A program made the translations under genes and the position numbers. The notes below the pieces were generated by a model that had not been told where the DNA came from, did no database searches, and saw nothing but the letters and a program-made list of their open reading frames with translations. A DNA stretch of 32,000 nucleotides from Candidatus Omnitrophota bacterium. Lineage in GTDB: Bacteria > Omnitrophota > Gorgyraeia > Zapsychrales > JANLHA01. The stretch covers positions 1,410,001-1,442,000 of the forward strand of contig OY759724.1 in assembly GCA_963662715.1 (NCBI GenBank), in the 5' to 3' direction. Every line of letters starts with the position of its first letter. Position 1 is the first letter of the stretch. Shown here piece by piece: positions 5,189 through 19,421 of this stretch.

Positions 5189-5201
5189 ATGGCATTGTTT
5201 T

Positions 5202-5283
<82 letters not shown>

Positions 5284-5368
5284 CTATTCTTCGGAACACA
5301 ATTCTTCTGGCGGCAGAACCATTTTGCCGGGTATCAGATTTAGTTATCAGATAAATAAAGAAATTCCT

Positions 5369-6091
5369 ATGAACAAACCGAAAAAAATACAAGTGAGCGC
5401 AAGTATTTTGTGCGCGGATTTTACCCGGCTGAAAGAAGAAATTCATAAATGTGAACAGGCCGGGGTGGATATTCTGCATGTAGATGTTATGGACGGGCAT
5501 TTCGTTCCCAACATTACGGTGGGTTCTTTGATTGTCAAAGCGATCCGCCCGCTGACCAGGCTGCCCATTGACACACATCTGATGATTGAACATCCTGAGG
5601 ATTATATTGATGATTTTTGTCAGGCCGGGGCGGATATTGTGTCTGTTCATGCGGAGTGTTACGGGCCGCTAAAAAAAGACTGCCGGAAGTACGGCCAGTA
5701 TCCCAAGGAGGTAGAGAGCATTGATCCGGAGAGAGCCGGGAAGGATATTCAGAAAATCAAAAATCATGGCAAAAAAGCCCATATGGTGATCAGCCCGGGA
5801 ACGCCTTTGTGCGTTGACGCCCTTTTAAATGATTTGGACGGGGTGCTTATTATGTCCGTTAACCCCGGTTTTGCGAAGCAGAAATTTATGCCTTCGGTTC
5901 TTCCCAAGATTCAGCAGTTAAGAAGCTGTTTTCAGGGGGACATTGAGGTTGACGGCGGCATTAATGATGTGACAGCTCCGGAAGTTATTAAGGCGGGGGC
6001 CAATATTTTAGCGACGGCCAGTTATTTCTTCGGCGCCGGTAACCCCAAGGATGCGGTTAAAAGTCTAAAAGGAATCCTTGCTTCAGGTTAA
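5369..6091 (+). CDS. rpe: Ribulose-phosphate 3-epimerase
   Basis: The ORF track starts at 5189 but that extension overlaps tRNA-Leu. The ATG at 5369 (MNKPKKIQVSASILCADF) gives the canonical Rpe N-terminus. Motifs HVDVMDGHFVPN, MSVNPGFAKQKF, VDGGIN. Confidence 0.9.
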   Translation: MNKPKKIQVSASILCADFTRLKEEIHKCEQAGVDILHVDVMDGHFVPNITVGSLIVKAIRPLTRLPIDTHLMIEHPEDYIDDFCQAGADIVSVHAECYGPLKKDCRKYGQYPKEVESIDPERAGKDIQKIKNHGKKAHMVISPGTPLCVDALLNDLDGVLIMSVNPGFAKQKFMPSVLPKIQQLRSCFQGDIEVDGGINDVTAPEVIKAGANILATASYFFGAGNPKDAVKSLKGILASG

Positions 6092-10335: not shown

Positions 10336-10410
10336 GGCCCCATCGTCTAGCCTGGTCCAGGACGTATGGTTCTCAGCCATAAAACGCCGGTTCAAATCCG
10401 GCTGGGGCTA
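10336..10410 (+). tRNA. tRNA-Glu, anticodon CTC
   Basis: GGCCCCATCGTCTAGCCTGGTCCAGGAC..., typical tRNA-Glu D-arm. Anticodon stem TATGG/CCATA with loop TTCTCAG (anticodon CTC). T-arm CCGG-TTCAAAT-CCGG. Acceptor GGCCCCA/TGGGGCT plus A. Confidence 0.9.
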
Positions 10411-10451: not shown

Positions 10452-10923
10452 AAAACTCCAACTCTTTGACCGGCAATCGGAGATATCGGCGACCGAGCGT
10501 TGCGAGGCAATTCAGAAAAGGTCATCCGAGCTGAGCGAGGAAGTGGTTGAGCAGGGGCGAAACCATTCCAAATCCGGCAGTATAAAAGGGGGACTCTTTT
10601 GAATCCCCGTTATTATTTCTTCTAACTCAGAAATTTTCCTTTTTGTATCCCCAAAACCATGGAAATATTACAGGAAAATAGATTTTTTGCGAGGCCTTTT
10701 CAAGAGTGCTTGTAATTCAAAAAATTTTATATTTATGTTAAGAAAAGTCAGATTTTGGTCGTATCGGGCCATTGACAGAGAGAAAAATAAGGATGATACT
10801 GTATGATATTTCCAGGTGTTTTGAAAGATCGGTAATATTATGCGTCGTAACTATTTAGCAGTATAAAAAAGGACAAAAGAGATTTTTTATTCAATAAAAA
10901 CCGGATATTTGGAAAAAAACACA

Positions 10924-11000
10924 CTATAACAATACATCACGATATCACCCAATAACAAAATTCAATATTAATAAGTACGACGTAGAAGAAATTGTTAGAC
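10924..11000 (+). repeat. attC-like recombination site (site 0) ending in core GTTAGAC
   Basis: Starts CTATAACAAT (inverse-core-like) and ends AATTGTTAGAC. TAACAAT/ATTGTTA pair as the base of an imperfect palindrome. GTTAGAC fits GTTRRRY and lies 7 nt before the ORF at 11008. Confidence 0.5.
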
Positions 11001-11007
11001 GAAGAAA

Positions 11008-12021
11008 ATGATGAAAAAACTCATAGAAGATTTTCAAAAAATAGCCACCACGATAACAGAGCTAACAAAAATATCTGACTTAACAGCAGAGCATGATATT
11101 TTATCAAATGCTGAACGACATATCGAAATAACAGGCTATGACAATTGGGATGGCGGGTCAGATATCCACACAGTATACTTGCAAATACCCATCGAGCTTT
11201 ACTCTAAATATGAGTCAAATTTAGATAAAATAGAAAAGACAATTAATTCTAAGTTTCAACCCATTCTTCGCAATTATCCGAATGAGTATATAAACGATGT
11301 TGTAATTACACCGCGCCTTGTACAAGCGAAAGCTTCTGTTCAAACAGAATACACTCAACAAGAAAAACATGCATTTATAAGCTATCAGACAGCTGATAAG
11401 CATGTTGCAGGAAAAATAAAACAATTATTAGAGGGTATTGGTATTGAAGGTTTTTTAGCACATGAAGACATTGACGTTTCATTAGAATGGCAAGATGAAA
11501 TATTAAAAAATATGGCAAAATCTTCTCTATTTATTTGCTTGTTAAGCAGTAATTATTTAAATTCTTTTTGGTGCATACAAGAATCGGGAATGGCAAGGTT
11601 TAAGAACTCTACAGTCATCCCGTTGACATTAGATGGCACTGTTCCGCCCGGTTTTATTTCAAAGTATCAAGCAGTAAGAATTGATCCTGAAAGACCTAGA
11701 ATACATGATCTTATCCCTGGATTGATGAAATATAATAAATTTGATGTCTTAGAAATAATTATAGAAGTAATTGGATCGTCGAGAAGTTTTCGTGGCGCAG
11801 AGTCTAATTTTGAATTGATTTTGCCATATTTAAATGATTTAACCGAGAAACAGGCTAAAAGTTTGCTAGAAAAAATAAGACAAAACAATCAAGTGCATCA
11901 TGCAAGTCTTTGTGCAAATGAATACATCCCAAAAGTGCTTAAGAAATATGGCAATTTAATCTCTGAAGATGACTTGGAGTTTTTAAAAGATAGATGTAAA
12001 GAATATAATGGAGACGTCTAA
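11008..12021 (+). CDS. TIR-domain protein (unknown N-terminal ~115 aa, TIR, helical C-terminal ~120 aa)
   Basis: TIR core at residues ~120-210: HAFISYQTADKHVAGKI...LFICLLSSNYLNSFWCIQESG...VIPLTLDG. The SxWCxxE motif carries the conserved catalytic Glu (E192, nt 11581-11583). Confidence 0.8.
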   Translation: MMKKLIEDFQKIATTITELTKISDLTAEHDILSNAERHIEITGYDNWDGGSDIHTVYLQIPIELYSKYESNLDKIEKTINSKFQPILRNYPNEYINDVVITPRLVQAKASVQTEYTQQEKHAFISYQTADKHVAGKIKQLLEGIGIEGFLAHEDIDVSLEWQDEILKNMAKSSLFICLLSSNYLNSFWCIQESGMARFKNSTVIPLTLDGTVPPGFISKYQAVRIDPERPRIHDLIPGLMKYNKFDVLEIIIEVIGSSRSFRGAESNFELILPYLNDLTEKQAKSLLEKIRQNNQVHHASLCANEYIPKVLKKYGNLISEDDLEFLKDRCKEYNGDV

Positions 12022-12090
12022 CAACTCAATCCAGCGGACCTCCGGGGCAGCTGCGCGCCCCTTCGAGCCGCTGATTTCGTTGCGTTATAG
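12016..12090 (+). repeat. attC-like recombination site (site A)
   Basis: GTCTAAC (12016-12022, fits RYYYAAC and overlaps the stop codon) is the exact reverse complement of GTTAGAC at 10994. The GC-rich imperfect hairpin pairs CAGCGG/CCGCTG and GGGGC/GCCCC, with bulged bases. It ends GTTATAG (12084-12090). Confidence 0.6.
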
Positions 12091-12111
12091 GAAATAAATA
12101 AAAAAGGAGAA

Positions 12112-12786
12112 ATGCTCATGTCTCGAAGTCCATATAAAATGCCTTCTGTGTTTGTAGCCTGCCCTTATGATGAAAAGAAATTTAAATTTTCTTCGTTTAA
12201 GAAAGAATTGGCGTCCCTTCCTTTTAGCATCGAATATGCTGATACAAATTTGGAAACAAAGCACTTAATGGAAAAAATAAAACGTCTTATAAAGGCTGCA
12301 GATTTTTCTTTCTTTGACTTGTCATCTTGGAATCCAAACGTTGCACTTGAATTAGGTTTAGCAGAAGGAGTTAAATCTTCTTATTATATTTTGGTAAACT
12401 CGAAGATGAACAAAGATGTTCCTTCCGATATTAAAGGGATTCAAAGAATAGAATATTCGTCCCTTCAAGGAAATGAGAGAAGTCTCCGTTCCCAAATAAT
12501 TCAATATTTCTTTAAAAAGAATTATTCTCTGACAAAAGATTTGTGGACAAAATTGTCTCGACATAAAAATGCTCATAAAATATTTGATTTTGGGTTGCGT
12601 GTTCTCGCCTTTCTACGAGATCACGATGCCATAGAACATGCCGATTTTAAAGAAATTTCTAGAGGACTATATGTTAGGCTTGAGGATCAGGAACATGTTA
12701 TAACAACTCTTATAAATATAAAGGCGTTAAAAAAGGCCTATGGTCGCGAAGAATACTTATTAACAAAATCTATATATAAGAAATGA
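12112..12786 (+). CDS. TIR-like / nucleoside 2-deoxyribosyltransferase-like domain protein with a possible C-terminal winged-helix
   Basis: SVFVACPYD...KIKRLIKAADFSFFDLSSWNPNVALELGLAEG resembles the (V/I)F(I/V)...AD..I.D.....NV.(F)ELG.A.G signature of COG4271-type TIR-like and deoxyribosyltransferase-like folds. The AAGGAGA RBS at 12104-12110 favours the second ATG (12118) as the start. Confidence 0.45.
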   Translation: MLMSRSPYKMPSVFVACPYDEKKFKFSSFKKELASLPFSIEYADTNLETKHLMEKIKRLIKAADFSFFDLSSWNPNVALELGLAEGVKSSYYILVNSKMNKDVPSDIKGIQRIEYSSLQGNERSLRSQIIQYFFKKNYSLTKDLWTKLSRHKNAHKIFDFGLRVLAFLRDHDAIEHADFKEISRGLYVRLEDQEHVITTLINIKALKKAYGREEYLLTKSIYKK

Positions 12787-12788
12787 CC

Positions 12789-12830
12789 CTATAACAATTC
12801 ATGTGTTCTATCGTAGATGAAAATTTATAA
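12789..12830 (+). repeat. Short, degenerate attC-like site (site B)
   Basis: CTATAAC (12789-12795, 3 nt after the stop) is the exact reverse complement of GTTATAG at 12084. AATTCAT pairs with ATGAA(AA)TT. The expected GTT core is TTTATAA (12824-12830), so the site is probably inactive. Confidence 0.4.
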
Positions 12831-12833
12831 AAA

Positions 12834-14465
12834 ATGACGTCACCTAAAAAGCGCGCTCAAATACTGCAAGATCATCTTAAAAAAGGTAATACTTTTTTCC
12901 CTCCTTTTACTTTTAAAGAAGGCATTGGTCGGTTTGACGAAATCAACTGGCGGGCAGACTTTGTTCCAGAGCTAATTTGGATTGCATTATTGATTGAGGA
13001 ATATGGATTCGATAAATCAAAAAATTTAGCCTGTGCTTTGGCAATATTGTCAATGCAACTCCGTCAAACTGAACAACTACCAGATTTTGGAATGGTATCA
13101 GCCTATGAACCACTAGGGGAAACGACAAAAAGGAATATTAATAAACACTTAGATTCAAAGGGAGTGTTGCAAGAAATATCAAAGCCATTGGTGCCATTGG
13201 TAACACTCTATCCTGATTGCCCATTAAGTTTTTTGATCGAAGGAGAAAAGAATAGATGTTCTGTCGATCACGCCAGCACAAAGGTTGCTCCAATTCTTGA
13301 AGAATGTCTTTACCGTGGTGAAAAATTGCCAACTCTTGTTCAAGCTGTTTATTATGAGCTGTCAATCGCTTCCGGAAAATTGAAATTCGTTGCTCCATTA
13401 GGCCCTCACAATACAGATCCTATTAAAGAATACCCCAATACAGACGAATCAAAAAGGTTGGCTAGCATGCTTAGGGCCAACGCTTGTCATATGACAGCAA
13501 TGGGCCATTCAAAGAAATGGGTTCAATATTTCTGGAGAAAAGGTCGTGATATTGGCCCTTGTGTGCCTAAAAAATCTTCTGACCTTCATCTGAATGATTT
13601 CCCTCAAGAATTTATTTTATACAACACAGAATGTTTCAAACAATATCATGATGGTTGTAATAAGCTATGGGAATATATCGAGCGAAACTATGTGATTGAT
13701 TTTTACTCTCCACTGCGTGACGAAATTCGCCTTAGTCTATTTTGCCGTATTTATCGCCTTACTGTCCATGTCGTAAGTTTTATCCCTAATTGGACAGAGG
13801 ATATAGCTGAAATATTTTTGCGAATGATTATAGAATCATATATTTACTATATGTGGTTCAAAAAAAATGGCACGGAAGAATCATATGAGAAATTCTATGT
13901 GTATGGCCTTGGGCAACAGAAATTAAGAAAAGAACACATATCAAACTATCTCAAGAAGCAAGGTGTTCCCGAGGAGGAGATAGAACAACAGAATCCCGGT
14001 CTCTCATTTCTTAAAAATCATAAAATGGATGAATTTATTCCAGTGAATATTGGAAATCCGCTGGACAAAAATCTTCGAATTATTGCAGAGGAGGCAGATT
14101 GCCGTGAAATTTACTCATTAATTTTCTCACCAGCGAGTTCTGCTATCCATGGAATGTATGATTCCTTAGAAAGGTTCTATTTGAAAACATGCCTAAATCC
14201 ATTCCATTGTTACCATAAAGTTCCATATTATTGGTCCAAATCAGCTGTGTCGAGTTATGGGGTGATTAACTGCCTTGAATTCACTGACTGGATTTTTGCT
14301 GATTTGGTGAAGGATTTAAATGGTAAATTGCCGGATAAAATGCCAGGTGAAATCTATATTGAGAACCTAAACGACAATAAGGCGCTCGAGGAGTTTACCA
14401 AAAGAGATGATGTGCAGGAGTGGATTAATTTATCTGCACAATTTAGAAACAATGTAAAGGAGTAA
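12834..14465 (+). CDS. Hypothetical protein, 543 aa, no domain recognised
   Basis: Long uninterrupted ORF in an AT-rich context, on the same strand as its neighbours and 4 nt after site B. Predicted mostly helical. No catalytic motif I can name and no obvious SD. Confidence 0.6.
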   Translation: MTSPKKRAQILQDHLKKGNTFFPPFTFKEGIGRFDEINWRADFVPELIWIALLIEEYGFDKSKNLACALAILSMQLRQTEQLPDFGMVSAYEPLGETTKRNINKHLDSKGVLQEISKPLVPLVTLYPDCPLSFLIEGEKNRCSVDHASTKVAPILEECLYRGEKLPTLVQAVYYELSIASGKLKFVAPLGPHNTDPIKEYPNTDESKRLASMLRANACHMTAMGHSKKWVQYFWRKGRDIGPCVPKKSSDLHLNDFPQEFILYNTECFKQYHDGCNKLWEYIERNYVIDFYSPLRDEIRLSLFCRIYRLTVHVVSFIPNWTEDIAEIFLRMIIESYIYYMWFKKNGTEESYEKFYVYGLGQQKLRKEHISNYLKKQGVPEEEIEQQNPGLSFLKNHKMDEFIPVNIGNPLDKNLRIIAEEADCREIYSLIFSPASSAIHGMYDSLERFYLKTCLNPFHCYHKVPYYWSKSAVSSYGVINCLEFTDWIFADLVKDLNGKLPDKMPGEIYIENLNDNKALEEFTKRDDVQEWINLSAQFRNNVKE

Positions 14466-14541
14466 TAAATAACAACGGAAAGAATCATCTATCAACGGCA
14501 TTAAGAGCGACGGCAAAAAATCGCCGAAAGATAAATAAAAC

Positions 14542-14943
14542 ATGAATATTTTTAAAAATGAAATTTATTGTGTAGTTTTTCCTGAAGAATTTCGATTTAA
14601 GTCATATGGGAAAGAGAAAAATCTAAAGACATTTATTGATGTCTCGGAGGGAAAGAATCCTAAGGTAATCGCTGTAGGTGAAGATGTTTCTCATCAAGAA
14701 CCATTTAATAGAGTGTATTTATTTAAAACTACTGAAAATAATTTAAAATTAAAGAAAAGTGAATATTTAACTGCCTATTTTAAGTATGCTTTTAAAAGCG
14801 TTTTTAATAAATTTGTTGTAGTAAGACCAACAATAATTTTTGAGAACACATCCAGCTTGAGTTCAATCTTAGGCGGTTATGAGAAAGATATCCTTGAGCA
14901 CGCATCATTGAGTGCAAGTGCTTTAAAATGTATATTTAAATAA
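14542..14943 (+). CDS. Hypothetical protein, 133 aa
   Basis: ORF on the same strand, 76 nt after the previous gene, with a double stop TAATAA. No recognisable motif. Confidence 0.4.
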   Translation: MNIFKNEIYCVVFPEEFRFKSYGKEKNLKTFIDVSEGKNPKVIAVGEDVSHQEPFNRVYLFKTTENNLKLKKSEYLTAYFKYAFKSVFNKFVVVRPTIIFENTSSLSSILGGYEKDILEHASLSASALKCIFK

Positions 14944-15126
14944 TAAACGGCTAACAAGTCATCCATGAAAACAGTCATCTGGTCAAGCATAAAATAGAAA
15001 GGCCAAATCATCCATTCGCGCTATATTCCCCCAAAGGACTTATGCGCACAATAGCGTATTATGACAGGGCGTGCCAATCACTACAACGGCCTTAAATATG
15101 CCAGAGTTGTTAACAGCATCACCCAT

Positions 15127-16134
15127 TTATACTGACCGATATTTATACTCACAGTTGTTTTTCAAAACAGCAAAAACAGATTTTAACAGCTTATGAGCAA
15201 CAGCAACTATAGCGACACCGTAATCTTTTTTAGTTCGAATCTTCTGAAAATGAGTTTGTAAATATATATCACGGCGCACAGCGGTTTGAGCCGCTTCGAC
15301 AAAAGCAGTGCGTAAGTATTTATTGCCATCTTTAGTAATAGGGCCTGAATAATAGCTTTGACCTGATTGATGGACACGAGGAACAATGCCGGCGTAACGG
15401 GCAAGTTTATGCGCATTCTTAAAGCGGGAGATGTCACCGATTTCAGCCAGGATGACATGAGCAAGAATAACCCCTATACCAGGGACAGTGTAGAGTAACC
15501 GAGCCTTAGAATCGACTTTGATGTTCAGACGGAGACGAGAATCGATTTTGTAAATATGCCGGGAGAGAATATCGATAAAGGAGAGATAATCGGCAATCAT
15601 GGAAGAATAAGGTTGCCGTAAGGATAATTGATTTAAGAAGAGTTTGCCGGAAACACCGAAGAGGTCGCTGAAAGAATGCTGAATACCCTGATAATCAAGG
15701 ATAGCATGAATACGATTTTTGAGGCTAGTGCGAATGGCGATCAAACGGTGGCGATACCGCATCAAAGCACGAGCATCACGATGAAAGCGGGAAACACGGT
15801 AAGCTTTGGGCAAGAGATCGGCTCTCAAGAGGTCAGCTAAAACAGAAGCAGAGATTTTATCGGTTTTAATGCGTTGTTCGGCAATAGCCTTAGTTCGCGC
15901 GGTATGAGCGAGAGAAACATCTAAGCCGGCCTCTTCAAGCAAGTCACCGAGCCAAAGGTCAAAGCCAGAGGCTTCCAGTGCGACAGAAGAGTTATGAGGA
16001 AGGGCTTTAAAATAATTTTTCATAGCATCTTTCTGAAAGTGATATAATTTTGTTTGATCGATGCGGTTGCCATTCTGATCTTTAACGACAACATACGAAT
16101 ACTTTTTGTGTTGATCGATTCCGATGTAATACAT
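15127..16134 (-). CDS. IS110-family transposase/recombinase
   Basis: MYYIGIDQHKKYSYVVV (DEDD RuvC-like N-terminus), ...ALEASGFD..., C-terminal YAGIVPRVHQSGQS / ITKDGNKYLR (IS116/IS110/IS902 domain). Start moved to the ATG at 16134, which has an AGGAGG RBS; the track's 16179 start lacks one. Confidence 0.9.
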   Translation of the reverse strand: MYYIGIDQHKKYSYVVVKDQNGNRIDQTKLYHFQKDAMKNYFKALPHNSSVALEASGFDLWLGDLLEEAGLDVSLAHTARTKAIAEQRIKTDKISASVLADLLRADLLPKAYRVSRFHRDARALMRYRHRLIAIRTSLKNRIHAILDYQGIQHSFSDLFGVSGKLFLNQLSLRQPYSSMIADYLSFIDILSRHIYKIDSRLRLNIKVDSKARLLYTVPGIGVILAHVILAEIGDISRFKNAHKLARYAGIVPRVHQSGQSYYSGPITKDGNKYLRTAFVEAAQTAVRRDIYLQTHFQKIRTKKDYGVAIVAVAHKLLKSVFAVLKNNCEYKYRSV

Positions 16135-16330
16135 ACGTGCCTCCTTTCTGGAAGGTTGTGGTTTTTGGCTTAAAATCATTATACGCCTTCCAGAGGCACG
16201 TTTTCATACTATCACTACAGCGGTGCGCTTCGGCACCTTCGGCAGCCTCAAGACCCAGTGGGCGTGTGGCGTATCTCCTCAAAAATTGGACTGAAAGTAA
16301 TTAGGGAGACAAAATAGCTTTTAATATAAA
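16135..16330 (-). ncRNA. Candidate IS110 bridge/guide RNA region in the 5' non-coding end
   Basis: Dense secondary structure. ACGTGCCTC..CTGGAAGG (16135-16156) pairs with CCTTCCAG-AGGCACGT (16185-16200) and occludes the RBS. A second hairpin is GGTGC-GCTTCG-GCACC (~16223-16238). The position matches the IS110 subgroup, where the ncRNA lies upstream of the recombinase. Confidence 0.35.
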
Positions 16331-16351
16331 AGGTCACCCGGGGCTATATAT

Positions 16352-16385
16352 CCCCCTGCAATTGATCAATTGCAGGGGGTTTTTG
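16352..16385 (+). terminator. Perfect 28-nt palindrome plus T5 (plus-strand intrinsic terminator-like)
   Basis: CCCCCTGCAATTGA|TCAATTGCAGGGGG followed by TTTTTG. Sits at the AT-rich/GC-richer transition. Confidence 0.55.
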
Positions 16386-16458
16386 TTTAGGGTAAAATGG
16401 GAAGAAATCAAATGAACCGGCAGGGTTTTATCGTCTCGCAATAATATACAGCAATAGC

Positions 16459-16887
16459 ATGGGTTTCCTTAAACATAGTTTTTCCAAGAACAACCATAAA
16501 ACAAGAAAGTTGAATTCCCAGGGCCCCTTGTTTTGGAGTCAAGTGTTCTTCATTATGGCGGTCATTGACGTTTCTATCATTTTCTTCAGGAAAAGCTGGA
16601 GCGCTGAGGCCGCTATCACGCCGTCCATTGAGGTCTTTCTGGGCATCACGATTTTGGGTTTAAGAAAATATGAAAAAGTCGTGAGGGTCTGTTTGATATG
16701 CCTGTTTTTTCTTACCGGTATCATCATGTTGCCCGGGGGGGATTTAAGGTGTCTCAGGGACTTGGGAGAAGAGGGGGTGTTCCTCCGGGCCCTGGTTTTA
16801 TTTTTGGGGGAATTTATGGCCGCGGCCGGCATAGCTGTTTTACTTAAGTATTCTCGGAGATCAAATTACGGCGGCACGTCCGGTTAA
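16459..16887 (+). CDS. Hypothetical membrane protein
   Basis: Three to four hydrophobic segments (VFFIMAVIDVSIIFF, VFLGITILGL, VCLICLFFLTGIIML, LVLFLGEFMAAAGIAVLL). Weak RBS and uncertain start. Confidence 0.4.
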   Translation: MGFLKHSFSKNNHKTRKLNSQGPLFWSQVFFIMAVIDVSIIFFRKSWSAEAAITPSIEVFLGITILGLRKYEKVVRVCLICLFFLTGIIMLPGGDLRCLRDLGEEGVFLRALVLFLGEFMAAAGIAVLLKYSRRSNYGGTSG

Positions 16888-16914
16888 ATCAACAGTATTA
16901 GAAGGGGATTTGTC

Positions 16915-18606
16915 ATGATAGAAGATGTTAAATTGAAAGAATGGTATCAAAGCAATAAAGAAAATGAAAGGAATGGTCTGGCAAAGATATTAGACGTGGA
17001 GTATGCGCATATAAAGCTGCGGGAGGAAGATGACCTGTATATTACTGCTGAAGGGTTGGCCTTTATCGATAATTTAATGCCGGAGAATTTTTGGACCGAC
17101 AAAGAATGGGTGAGGGAGAATTCAGAGCGGTTGTCGGGGACAAGCACTGTTTATAAGATCAGGACCAAAAAAGTGGGCGGTAAGCAGATAGAGCTTGTCG
17201 TTAAATGGAACCGGATGGGCCAGGATGTGCCCGGGGCGGAAGACTGTGAAGACTTGATGAGCGCTGAATTTAACAGCCCTTTTGAGGAATTTTCATTGGT
17301 TTTTGAATTAAGGAAAATAGTTCATGATTCAATGGAGAATATTTTTATACAGAGGCCTTTGGCGATATTCGTTCCTTCCGAATCTGTCGAGTTGTGGCAG
17401 AGCGGCAGAAAAGAGTATAAGATGCGGAACAAGATCGAGTCGCACAAGGATATTATGTTGGACATGTTCCGTTCTTACGCGGTTATATATTTATGGGTTC
17501 CGGGGATCGATTTAACGCAGGCCCTGAAAAAGGATTCTTTAAAGGAGAAAGACCTGAAACTGTTGACTCGGGATGCGCAAAAGAAAATGTTCGAAAACGG
17601 TTATGTGGTTAAAGATCATAAGCCCCAGCATGTCATTGTTAACTCGGGGAAGGAAGGAGGCTTGAAAAGAAACGCAAACGGGGAAATAGAATATGCTTTG
17701 GTTGATTTTGAATTGCTTCAGCGGACTTTCGAGAAGGAAGAAATGGTTAAGAAGAACAAACGCACGGATTATTTAAAAAGACAAAAAGACAGGTTTAATA
17801 TAGAAACCCCGAAGAAGTTTTACCCGTATTTGAACCACGTGAGTATTTTTGATGTCGCGTATATCTTTGGGCATGTCGAAAGCACGAAAGGAAGATTGTG
17901 GGTTTTGGGAAAAGACCCCTGTTTGTTCGACTATTTCCTCCCGGAACGATGGGAGCAGAGGCCCAGGACGAAAATATCGGTTCTCAATGCCATGTATTAC
18001 ACGATTTCCAAAGATAATATCCACCTTGTCTGGAAAGTGTCCAAGGTCGGCTCCAGGCCCGACATGGATCCTTTTAAAGAAGATGAAAAGAAAATACTGG
18101 ATTATGGCTATAACAGCCCTTTTGAAGAAGCTGCGATAGCCCTTGAACTTGAGCAAAAAGGAATACCCACGATCAGTCCGAGAGCGATATATATGACTTC
18201 GAATGAAATAGACATGTCGGCACATTTGCAGGATAATTCGCGTTACGATAATCATAAAAATTTGTTTGATCCTGACGGGGCGGCCATATTAAGAAAAGAC
18301 CGCGATTACATAAGTATTTGGGGATACTGGCGCGGACCCATCGAAAAACTGGCTCAAAGAGACGAAGATTATCATGAGGGGATGAATATTTTAAAGGCAT
18401 ACAGAGAAAGAATTATCAATGAACAGCAATATTTAAACCTGCTGCAGACAGCAAAACAAAGATTGCTGCATGCGGGCTTTGAGGACCTTAATCTTAGGGG
18501 AAACCATTTGATGATTTCTTTTGACAGTCACAATAATCTTATTATGGATGATTCAGGCCTGCCTGAAATTAGAATATGTAATTTTGAGTTTCTTAAGAGA
18601 ATTTAA
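16915..18606 (+). CDS. Protein with two tandem RIO/Kdo(WaaP)-like atypical kinase-fold modules
   Basis: Internal duplication: FNSPFEEFSLVFELRK ... DHKPQHVIVN ... LVDFELL, and YNSPFEEAAIALELEQKGIPT ... EDLNLRGNHLMIS ... ICNFEFL. These resemble the N-lobe helix, catalytic loop and DFG-equivalent of Kdo/RIO-type kinases. Confidence 0.4.
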   Translation: MIEDVKLKEWYQSNKENERNGLAKILDVEYAHIKLREEDDLYITAEGLAFIDNLMPENFWTDKEWVRENSERLSGTSTVYKIRTKKVGGKQIELVVKWNRMGQDVPGAEDCEDLMSAEFNSPFEEFSLVFELRKIVHDSMENIFIQRPLAIFVPSESVELWQSGRKEYKMRNKIESHKDIMLDMFRSYAVIYLWVPGIDLTQALKKDSLKEKDLKLLTRDAQKKMFENGYVVKDHKPQHVIVNSGKEGGLKRNANGEIEYALVDFELLQRTFEKEEMVKKNKRTDYLKRQKDRFNIETPKKFYPYLNHVSIFDVAYIFGHVESTKGRLWVLGKDPCLFDYFLPERWEQRPRTKISVLNAMYYTISKDNIHLVWKVSKVGSRPDMDPFKEDEKKILDYGYNSPFEEAAIALELEQKGIPTISPRAIYMTSNEIDMSAHLQDNSRYDNHKNLFDPDGAAILRKDRDYISIWGYWRGPIEKLAQRDEDYHEGMNILKAYRERIINEQQYLNLLQTAKQRLLHAGFEDLNLRGNHLMISFDSHNNLIMDDSGLPEIRICNFEFLKRI

Positions 18607-18824
18607 CTGAAATATAATGATTCGCCGGTCTGACAGTTCAGATAGGATCATCCGGGCGGCGCGGGGGAGTGTTTGCCCGGCAGCGAAACCATCCCTGATT
18701 TTTCCCGAAGCGCAACAGGGCCGCAAGGTGAATGCCCGGTCCCCTGGCCCATAATTTTTTATTGTCTCCCCAAAATTTCCGGGCTAGAATATGGCGCCTG
18801 AAAAAGGCTAAGAAAGGACCGTTT

Positions 18825-19421
18825 ATGAATATGTTGTTCAACTGCGTGCTCGCATTGTTGGCGCTGGTCAATCCCATCAGCAAGATATTTATTTTGTCTT
18901 CCCTGGCTGCGGAATCAGACCCCCAGGAGATTAAAAGGATTTCCGTGAAAGCGACCTCGGTTGCGGCTGGCATGCTGATCGTATTCGCGCTGTTGGGGAA
19001 TTTTATCCTGCAGAATATCTTTCACGTTAAAATTTATGCGTTTCAGATAGTCGGAGGTGTTGTCCTTTTCCTCCGGGGGCTTCAGGCCCTGAACAAAGGT
19101 TTGTTTCTTGAGCTGGAAGCTCATCAAAAACTGGAAGATGCTTCCATCGTTCCGCTGGCATCCCCGATGATCGCCGGCCCGGCCACATTGACAGCCGCCA
19201 TAGCTTTCCCGTCTCAATACGGCATGCTCATAACCTTGACGGCTATTATGATGGCCTTGTTGATCAACTTGTTTATCATGTTGTCGGCCAAGAAAATCAG
19301 CGGTGTTTTGAGCGAGTACAATCTCATGGGGGCCTTGATACGGATTACCGGCCTTGTTGTCGCCACCATCGGTGTTCAGATGATATTGGACGGTACGGCG
19401 GAATATATCGCCGCTCTGTAA
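18825..19421 (+). CDS. MarC-family (UPF0056) integral membrane protein
   Basis: MNMLFNCVLALLALVNPISKIFI... (NPI motif) and six hydrophobic segments. The ATG at 18825 has an AGAAAGGA RBS; the track's upstream extension from 18732 is non-membrane junk. Confidence 0.7.
   Translation: MNMLFNCVLALLALVNPISKIFILSSLAAESDPQEIKRISVKATSVAAGMLIVFALLGNFILQNIFHVKIYAFQIVGGVVLFLRGLQALNKGLFLELEAHQKLEDASIVPLASPMIAGPATLTAAIAFPSQYGMLITLTAIMMALLINLFIMLSAKKISGVLSEYNLMGALIRITGLVVATIGVQMILDGTAEYIAAL

Follow-up and report, generated by a model that had tools for sequence, protein, structure and literature searches.

A TIR protein from an Omnitrophota bacterium with a predicted DARNA-like C-terminal module

Only in a few instances, such as the recognition of the phage portal by SpbK, is it known how stand-alone bacterial TIR proteins sense infection. 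A gene in the genome of a Candidatus Omnitrophota bacterium raises this question for a TIR domain that lies between two further modules. The window analyzed here, meaning the whole stretch of 32,000 nt, covers positions 1,410,001-1,442,000 of contig OY759724.1, and all coordinates below are window positions. The open reading frame (ORF) listing places the gene at 11008..12021 on the forward strand, with an ATG start and a product of 337 amino acids. This ORF is exactly the one given in the original prediction, and the strings quoted there (AFISY, LFICLLSSNYLNSFWCIQE and DNWDGGSDIHTVYLQIPIELYSKYE) are all in the translation. The same prediction described two unassigned modules beside the TIR domain as possible sensors; the extra modules and their possible sensing role stand, but "unassigned" no longer applies, as both can be partly assigned by homology.

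An AlphaFold2 model of the 337-amino-acid protein had a mean predicted local distance difference test score (pLDDT) of 91.4 and contained three folded modules and a disordered linker, all encoded on the forward strand. The N-terminal alpha/beta module (N-module), delimited by the model together with homolog searches, spans residues 1-104 (11008..11319) and carries the motif GYDNWDGG at residues 43-50. It is followed by the linker at residues 105-116 (11320..11355), where pLDDT is below 50 and the homolog alignment is gapped and variable, and then by the TIR domain at residues 121-228 (11368..11691), assigned from Pfam TIR_2 and the match to SpbK. Directly after the TIR domain (121-~228 in the model) comes an all-helical C-terminal module (C-module) at residues 232-332 (11701..12003), modeled at pLDDT 95.7. 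Judged by this model, the domain sizes proposed earlier (~115, 90 and 120 amino acids) are about right.

The TIR domain and its fixed C-terminal partner

Pfam TIR_2 (PF13676) matched residues 123-226 with E=5.1e-17 (62.9 bits against a gathering cut-off of 28), far beyond chance and in line with the earlier assignment as a bacterial TIR, and Pfam TIR also matched the protein (E=2e-7). The closest PDB sequence to the TIR domain found by phmmer was the Bacillus subtilis NADase SpbK (9phb). When the full AlphaFold2 model was compared with the PDB by Foldseek, only TIR domains were matched: the SpbK filament came first, at ~24% identity over the TIR domain, ahead of SPARTA, SARM1 and plant TIRs. 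The putative catalytic residue Glu192 stands in the motif S186-F-W-C-I-Q-E192, and its codon was confirmed as GAA at 11581..11583 on the forward strand, where the original prediction had put it. This residue aligns with the glutamate of SpbK CLNEMG, which is SpbK E192 once the 24-residue tag of the 290-residue PDB chain is subtracted, and E192A is a catalytic mutant of SpbK (PMC12847820). E192 is invariant across 48 aligned homologs, and the invariant TIR residues in the homolog alignment are F123, S125, Y126, H152, W161, S186, C189, Q191, E192 and G194. E192 thus sits where enzymatic TIRs carry their conserved catalytic glutamate (SpbK E192, SARM1 E642). By these comparisons the TIR domain is real, its presumptive catalytic glutamate is intact, and the protein is predicted to cleave NAD+.

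The protein had 320 homologs among 5.8 billion proteins, and family architectures were counted over the best 120 of the 320. Six of these were full-length homologs at 59-63% identity, about ten more carried all three modules at 38-43% identity, and most were proteins of 216-230 amino acids that align only to residues 121-333. By architecture, 95 of the 120 consisted of TIR and C-module only (TIR-C, ~218 amino acids), 15 had the order N-TIR-C, and 10 joined another N-terminal domain to TIR-C. Because the C-module is fixed to the TIR domain in these homologs, it is part of a ~218-amino-acid unit and not an optional sensor bolted onto it. The invariant or near-invariant positions of the C-module are R262, A264, E265, P273, Q282, L286, N293, Q295, A299, C302, A303 and P308, and with so many polar residues among the conserved ones, the module looks more like a binding site than a scaffold. 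The distribution of the TIR-C family is patchy over many phyla, archaea included, and its members are mostly environmental. It is described by no Pfam, NCBIfam or PADLOC model. A tblastn search of plasmids and phages with the TIR domain plus C-module gave three weak plasmid matches and no phage match.

PADLOC and hhalign relate the C-module to PD-T7-3, a protein since renamed DARNA that has an N-terminal HEPN tRNase and a ~300-amino-acid helical C-domain (bioRxiv 10.64898/2026.02.22.705581). When the whole protein was searched with PADLOC, positions 344-415 of the 432 in the PD-T7-3 model matched residues 246-317 (E=1.1e-8), and for the C-module alone PD-T7-3 was the only PADLOC match (E=2.6e-9). 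A profile built from 46 diverse C-modules was then compared with all PDB sequences, and its top two matches were 9wwz_A and 9wxf_A, both called "Dandelion" (E=0.03 and 0.06). By tblastn with the aligned fragment, the "Dandelion" gene is ORF1 of the phage P2-EC30 Z-region (AJ512676.1, locus L049, 364-1779). Residues named in the DARNA paper (F6, N33, D81, P85, R98, R117, H122, K201, K204, E347, F368 and W406) match ORF1 in 12 of 12 cases when counted from its second in-frame methionine, DARNA numbering being annotated ORF1 numbering minus 16. This agreement identifies "Dandelion" as DARNA.

For a direct comparison, DARNA was aligned with six plasmid relatives at 22-35% identity, and the alignment was set against the C-module profile by hhalign. 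The two matched with a probability of 96.6-97.2% (P=5e-10 to 8.5e-11), the local mode pairing profile columns 19-93 with DARNA 353-429 and the other run pairing columns 1-110 with DARNA 331-455. Control comparisons gave probabilities of 0.3% for the reversed template, 1.2% for DARNA 1-330, 0.4% for the unrelated N-module profile and no more than 0.8% for 20 column-shuffled queries. On the strength of these profile matches, the C-module is best described as a predicted remote homolog of the distal, single-stranded DNA (ssDNA)-binding part of DARNA.

The distal part of the DARNA C-domain binds ssDNA presented by the phage single-stranded DNA-binding protein (SSB), touching the DNA via bases only, with no phosphate contacts (bioRxiv 10.64898/2026.02.22.705581). 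In that site F368 stacks on thymine, D372 and Q403 hydrogen-bond to cytosine and thymine, respectively, and Y405 and W406 both touch adenine; replacing F368 or W406 by alanine inactivates the protein (bioRxiv 10.64898/2026.02.22.705581). Two short segments of the C-module, both on the forward strand, align with these residues. F261-R-G-A-E265 (11788..11802) places F261 at DARNA F368 and E265 at D372, and N293-N-Q295-V-H297-H298 (11884..11901) aligns with DARNA N401-N-Q403-C-Y405-W406.

Conservation at these positions was counted in 118 TIR-C sequences and in seven sequences of the DARNA family. The position of F261 is F, Y or W in all 118 TIR-C sequences, and its DARNA counterpart F368 is F or Y in seven of seven. 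A264 (DARNA A371) and N293 (DARNA N401) are likewise found in 118; the asparagine is kept in 7/7 of the DARNA family, and A371 is alanine in 4/7, with C, S and T also found. E265 is conserved in 116, with aspartate at D372 in five of the seven DARNA sequences, and Q295 in 111, with Q403 kept in six. The H297 position is H in 77 and Y in 11 TIR-C sequences and, as Y405, is Y or H in all seven DARNA sequences, and the H298 position is H in 84 and, as W406, variable in the DARNA family. The residues through which DARNA contacts ssDNA therefore fall on the most conserved columns of the TIR-C family. A large TIR family is thereby connected with the ssDNA-sensing end of DARNA, whose structure was solved recently, and a residue-level hypothesis follows for F261, E265, N293, Q295 and H297. 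The same connection suggests that one nucleic-acid sensor has been coupled to suicide effectors of two kinds, the HEPN RNase of DARNA and a TIR NADase.

Several further observations concern the two families. The equivalence of PDB "Dandelion", DARNA/PD-T7-3 and P2-EC30 ORF1 was cross-referenced in no source examined, and a 45-amino-acid DARNA fragment found no candidate in the 5.8-billion-protein index. No description of the TIR-C family was found in the literature searched, and the DARNA preprint mentions no TIR fusions. DARNA-like C-modules also occur without a recognizable TIR domain in proteins of ~90-190 amino acids (P0270-P0286), some of them on long contigs (P0280, P0281, P0283), and these proteins may represent either sensor modules on their own or genes in decay.

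An exchangeable N-terminal module

The N-module was modeled at pLDDT ~93 with the topology H-H-E-E-H-H-E (H, helix; E, strand). Searching 1.84 billion representatives with phmmer recovered it in 270 clusters, 30 of them at E<=1e-10, with the signature TGYDNWNGGT...P...YA...E..I...R...V.I.P. Among the 149 listed matches of these 270 clusters, the module stood alone in 57 (some maybe fragments), preceded a TIR domain with various tails in ~40, and was joined to unknown domains of 100-250 amino acids in ~27. Eight matches had the N-TIR-C order and five the order AbiJ_NTD3-N-TIR. Other combinations were N-AbiJ HEPN (P0142), the N-module with a PDC-S32 C-terminus (P0121) and N-AbiJ_NTD3-...-AAA_21 (P0200).

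Neither Pfam (AbiJ_NTD3, NTD4 and NTD5 included) nor NCBIfam nor PADLOC has a model that matches the N-module, and its profile compared with the PDB gave only spurious ankyrin/DARPin matches. In the fetched loci, a separately encoded N-module was absent beside short TIR-C genes, which argues that the module is accessory to the TIR-C core. Its behavior resembles that of AbiJ-NTD1-5, sensor/adaptor modules that are shuffled in modular Abi proteins with HEPN (Anantharaman et al. 2013, PMC3710099). Like them, the N-module is an N-terminal alpha+beta domain of ~100 amino acids that recurs on different effectors (HEPN, TIR and ABC-ATPase), and in some proteins it is accompanied by AbiJ_NTD3. The N-module thus appears to be a recurrent, exchangeable and so far unnamed domain of abortive-infection proteins, of the AbiJ-NTD-like class, and the searches define this widely shuffled GYDNWNGG module. 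The families matched by both flanking modules are defense-associated, and not the well-characterized non-defense family that would have spoken against the original prediction.

One candidate for the identity of the N-module was rejected. A PADLOC match to spbK (3-196 to 37-231) had suggested homology to the SpbK N-terminal domain (Ntd), but the score came entirely from the TIR part, and the homology was therefore dismissed. The full-length SpbK chain was also unmatched by the N-module profile at E<=10.

A probable single-gene system and its possible trigger

Gene neighborhoods were compared over 48 family loci, 9 from exact-sequence look-ups and 39 from a one-genome-per-species scan, which include Proteobacteria, Desulfobacterota, Acidobacteriota, Chloroflexota, Chlorobi, Ignavibacteria, Elusimicrobiota, Leptospira, Nitrospinota and several archaea. 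Clustering of all ORFs within 4 kb found no neighbor conserved over these loci, three near-identical contigs excepted. The frequent neighbors are defense-like or mobile: AAA_21/AAA_15, RiboL-PSP HEPN with DUF4238, GIY-YIG, PDDEXK_4, DUF1016, YoeB/Phd and transposases. The neighbor genes of the window do not recur beside family members, the sole exception being one weak match among the 48 loci to a 224-amino-acid protein encoded by the next ORF (12112-12786, forward strand). This protein has a CAP12/Pycsar-effector TIR-like match below threshold (E=7.8e-5, 23.1 bits against a cut-off of 24.7), and a hairpin at 12022-12082 stands between its ORF and the TIR gene. A ThsA-like gene (SIR2, Macro, transmembrane, SLOG) was absent from the window and from the 48 family loci. 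Given that no partner is conserved across the 48 loci, a single-gene system is well supported, as the original prediction had offered in one of its two proposals. The other, a signal generator acting with the neighboring cassette, found no support, as the 224-amino-acid neighbor is TIR-like only below threshold and does not travel with the family.

Compared with known systems, the protein is closest in predicted action to SpbK of B. subtilis ICEBs1 (9phb), a single-protein abortive-infection TIR NADase with E192 as the aligned catalytic glutamate in both. In SpbK, too, a flexible linker joins an N-terminal domain to the TIR domain, and activation comes about by TIR clustering (PMC12847820). 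The portal YonE is bound by the SpbK Ntd, a 4-helix bundle (PMC12847820), whereas the N-module here is alpha/beta with no detectable homology to this bundle, and SpbK ends after its TIR domain (helix alphaF), whereas the 337-amino-acid protein adds a helical module of ~100 amino acids. SPARTA assembles its TIR active site head-to-tail as in SpbK filaments, though in a different way. Other stand-alone defense TIRs, compared by description, are similar in that phage defense depends on TIR active-site residues, and two of them, TIR-V and TIR-IX, sense portals.

DARNA is likewise a single-gene abortive-infection system, and its distal end, which reads "CT" in ssDNA, is homologous to the C-module by the profile comparisons above. 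The DARNA effector, however, is an N-terminal HEPN RNase (Rx4H) that cleaves tRNA in place of the TIR domain found here, and no HEPN match was obtained for the 337-amino-acid protein in Pfam or PADLOC. Furthermore, the DARNA C-domain is ~300 amino acids long, Pds5-like and dodecameric, and only residues 331-455 align here. The 337-amino-acid protein is therefore predicted to be SpbK-like in action and DARNA-like on the sensor side, and it is a member of neither family.

We favor a one-protein TIR-NADase abortive-infection system with the DARNA-like C-module as its ssDNA sensor, a reading to which we give about an even chance of being right. The C-module would bind exposed bases of phage single-stranded nucleic acid which, by analogy with DARNA, would be ssDNA presented by SSB. 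Several copies on one strand, or copies clustered in another way, would let the TIR domains meet head-to-tail and so complete the active site. Glu192 would then cleave NAD+, possibly also yielding products of the cyclic ADP-ribose (cADPR) type, and NAD+ depletion would leave an infected cell that no longer supports phage growth. On its disordered tether, the N-module would serve as an accessory, exchangeable input/adaptor or modulator that was added to the core in this lineage. We infer the NADase activity, the nucleic-acid binding, the activation by clustering and the anti-phage phenotype from these comparisons. If correct, this would be a direct nucleic-acid-sensing route to TIR immunity without an Argonaute, retron or CRISPR partner.

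A bolder version, which we regard as possible and somewhat doubtful, is that TIR-C proteins form a widespread and so far undescribed class of TIR NADases whose active filament is templated by phage single-stranded nucleic acid, with the N-module of this protein reading a second, protein cue. This strand-templated, two-input reading would mean that HEPN and TIR effectors exchange their sensor modules as separate building blocks.

Several points weigh against the favored reading. Homology to DARNA is limited to its last 75-125 residues at ~19% identity, and DARNA W406 is not conserved, being His here and variable among DARNA relatives. The invariant residues R262, C302 and P308 are without an equivalent in DARNA, which leaves room for a different ligand. 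For ssDNA binding, DARNA requires a pre-formed dodecamer (bioRxiv 10.64898/2026.02.22.705581). A Foldseek search of PDB and BFVD with the C-module returned nothing significant and did not return DARNA, although the library (to April 2026) may lack 9wxf and 9wwz; the matches were generic helical repeats only (AlkD, PUF and MA3). In addition, the TIR could make a signal for an effector encoded elsewhere.

The layout of the protein also invites a different division of labor, in which the N-module is the trigger sensor and docks on an oligomeric phage protein such as portal or capsid, thereby clustering the TIR domains, while the C-module is only a structural or oligomerization extension. An N-domain, a ~12-residue disordered linker and a TIR domain do resemble SpbK (PMC12847820), portal-sensing single-protein TIRs are known (PMC11350192), and the N-module is shuffled among TIR, AbiJ HEPN and AAA_21 proteins as expected for a sensor or adaptor. 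However, 95 of the 120 family members have no N-module and no separate copy nearby, so the core must sense alone. The N-module is also no homolog of the SpbK Ntd, being predicted as alpha/beta and not as a 4-helix bundle and having no SpbK or PADLOC match, and the positions conserved most strongly in the C-module hold polar or aromatic residues and match a known ligand site. We therefore consider N-module triggering unlikely. If the C-module does hold the binding site, its ligand might instead be a small molecule (a free base, a nucleoside or something nucleotide-like), phage-specific or infection-induced, that activates the TIR domain allosterically. The bases-only contacts of the homologous DARNA site would fit such a ligand, and the extra invariant residues R262, C302 and P308, absent from DARNA, suggest a remodeled pocket. 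Against this, the only characterized homolog of the C-module binds ssDNA, and Pfam, PADLOC and Foldseek gave no similarity of the C-module to CARF, SAVED, SLOG or STING, which makes a small-molecule trigger decidedly unlikely in our view.

The output of the TIR domain can be questioned in the same way. As in Thoeris, the protein might produce a messenger derived from NAD, of the cADPR type or another, that addresses an effector in trans, either the 224-amino-acid neighbor with its sub-threshold CAP12/Pycsar-effector TIR-like match or the product of a gene elsewhere. Thoeris ThsB is likewise a TIR with a catalytic Glu, profile similarity to ThsB-type proteins is detectable though weak (PADLOC ThsB1, E=1e-7; NCBIfam ThcB4, E=2e-9), and SpbK itself makes N1-cADPR (PMC12847820). 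Yet Thoeris needs an adjacent ThsA, which neither the window nor the 48 loci contain, the Thoeris type III model ThcB4 (NCBIfam NF058526) scored 36.8 bits against a cut-off of 220, and the 224-amino-acid neighbor recurs beside a family member once, weakly, with the hairpin between both genes here. Messenger production for a separate effector is accordingly improbable. As for a role outside defense, some bacterial TIR proteins are virulence factors, and the gene might encode an inter-bacterial or host-directed TIR NADase toxin or act in NAD metabolism. Pfam gave no signal peptide or secretion-associated domain, both extra modules are common to abortive-infection and defense proteins, the gene lies in a defense-type island beside a DitA-like gene, and the spread over phyla is patchy and includes archaea, all of which make a role outside defense very improbable.

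The genomic island around the TIR gene

The TIR gene lies in an island with a GC content of 35%, against 48% in the left flank and 44% in the right flank. A tRNA-Glu(CUC) found by ARAGORN and Rfam at 10336..10410 on the forward strand marks the left boundary with its 3' end, which is attL-like, and a degenerate copy of this 3' end, CACCCGGGGCTATATAT, at 16335..16351 on the forward strand marks the right boundary. The boundaries were defined against a related genome (L059), reached through the CTP synthase cluster, whose flanking genes share 74-81% nucleotide identity with the window. The two genomes are syntenic over carB, purF, pyrG, rpe, a response regulator-GGDEF gene, a histidine kinase gene, FIST and tRNA-Glu, to window position 10485. 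Homology resumes at 16340-16400, and L059 lacks window positions 10486-16339. At its "empty" site (~16800-17100), L059 repeats the tRNA 3' end exactly over 18 nt, AATCCGGCTGGGGCTATA, ~130 bp downstream of the tRNA. In the window, a search allowing up to three mismatches gave no second tRNA 3' end, and the degenerate copy was seen only by comparison with L059.

Within these boundaries the order is TIR gene, 224-amino-acid ORF, a DitA-like gene of 543 amino acids, a 133-amino-acid ORF and, on the opposite strand, an IS110-family transposase. The 543-amino-acid DUF5677 protein (12834-14465, forward strand) matched PADLOC DitA of the Aditi defense system with E=1.8e-28, and the 133-amino-acid ORF (14542-14943, forward strand) had no matches. 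DitB models matched neither the 224- nor the 133-amino-acid ORF that flank the DitA-like gene, a metagenome scan found no relatives of these two neighbors, and plasmid DitA homologs were too distant and had no neighbors similar to either ORF. The literature searched offered no help on a DitB partner. The transposase gene (15127-16179, reverse strand; DEDD_Tnp_IS110 and Transposase_20) lies at the right end of the island, and its GC content above that of the rest of the island suggests that it was probably a later insertion. It is the only mobility gene, and the island has no tyrosine integrase. In addition, a search of all window ORFs of at least 280 amino acids gave no integrase domain. The tRNA-end boundaries and the absence from L059 indicate that the acquired unit is the whole island and not a single gene. 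This unit measures 5.9 kb, occupies a hotspot of integration at tRNA-Glu and no longer has an integrase.

A GC-rich imperfect hairpin at 12022..12082 on the forward strand, directly 3' of the TIR stop codon, had a folding free energy (dG) of -27.4 kcal/mol (z=-1.85) and no counterpart in the window or in any fetched locus. It is a possible terminator, although a terminator scan did not call it since it has no T-run. This ~60-nt hairpin begins with GTCTAAC, which fits the attC consensus RYYYAAC, and the island has short intergenic spacers with all four genes co-oriented, as might be expected if the TIR gene were an integron-type cassette of an ORF plus downstream attC mobilized by an integron integrase. 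However, the 3' end of the hairpin has no GTTRRRY core, the hairpin is unique with no repeated attC-like family in the window and no comparable element after the other ORFs, no integrase domain occurs among the window ORFs of at least 280 amino acids, and the island is bounded by the tRNA 3' end and its degenerate repeat. An integron cassette is therefore hardly credible here, and the earlier idea of the TIR gene as a cassette and self-contained mobile unit is not supported. As an observation apart, the hairpin is GC-rich within an AT-rich island, and it may be a terminator or the relic of a recombination site.

Few other elements were predicted around the TIR gene. A consensus scan gave a sigma-70-like promoter candidate, TTGACA-17-GATACT, at 10772..10800 on the forward strand, ~210 bp upstream of the start codon; it matches the consensus at 10 of 12 positions and is weak, and the number of such sites is not above shuffle expectation. 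Rfam found only the tRNA over the island. Just beyond the island, ORFs at 16459-16887 (142 amino acids, forward strand), 16915-18606 (563 amino acids, forward strand) and 18638-18973 (111 amino acids, reverse strand) have no Pfam match, PADLOC gave nothing for them, and no DNA similarity of this region to L059 was detected. These three ORFs may form a second variable segment. In the left part of the window, the mechanical 300-amino-acid ORF for ribulose-phosphate 3-epimerase (5189-6091, forward strand) overlaps tRNA-Leu(GAG) at 5202-5284. Its real start is placed downstream of the tRNA, as the Pfam match begins at residue 69 and the L059 ortholog has 237 amino acids.

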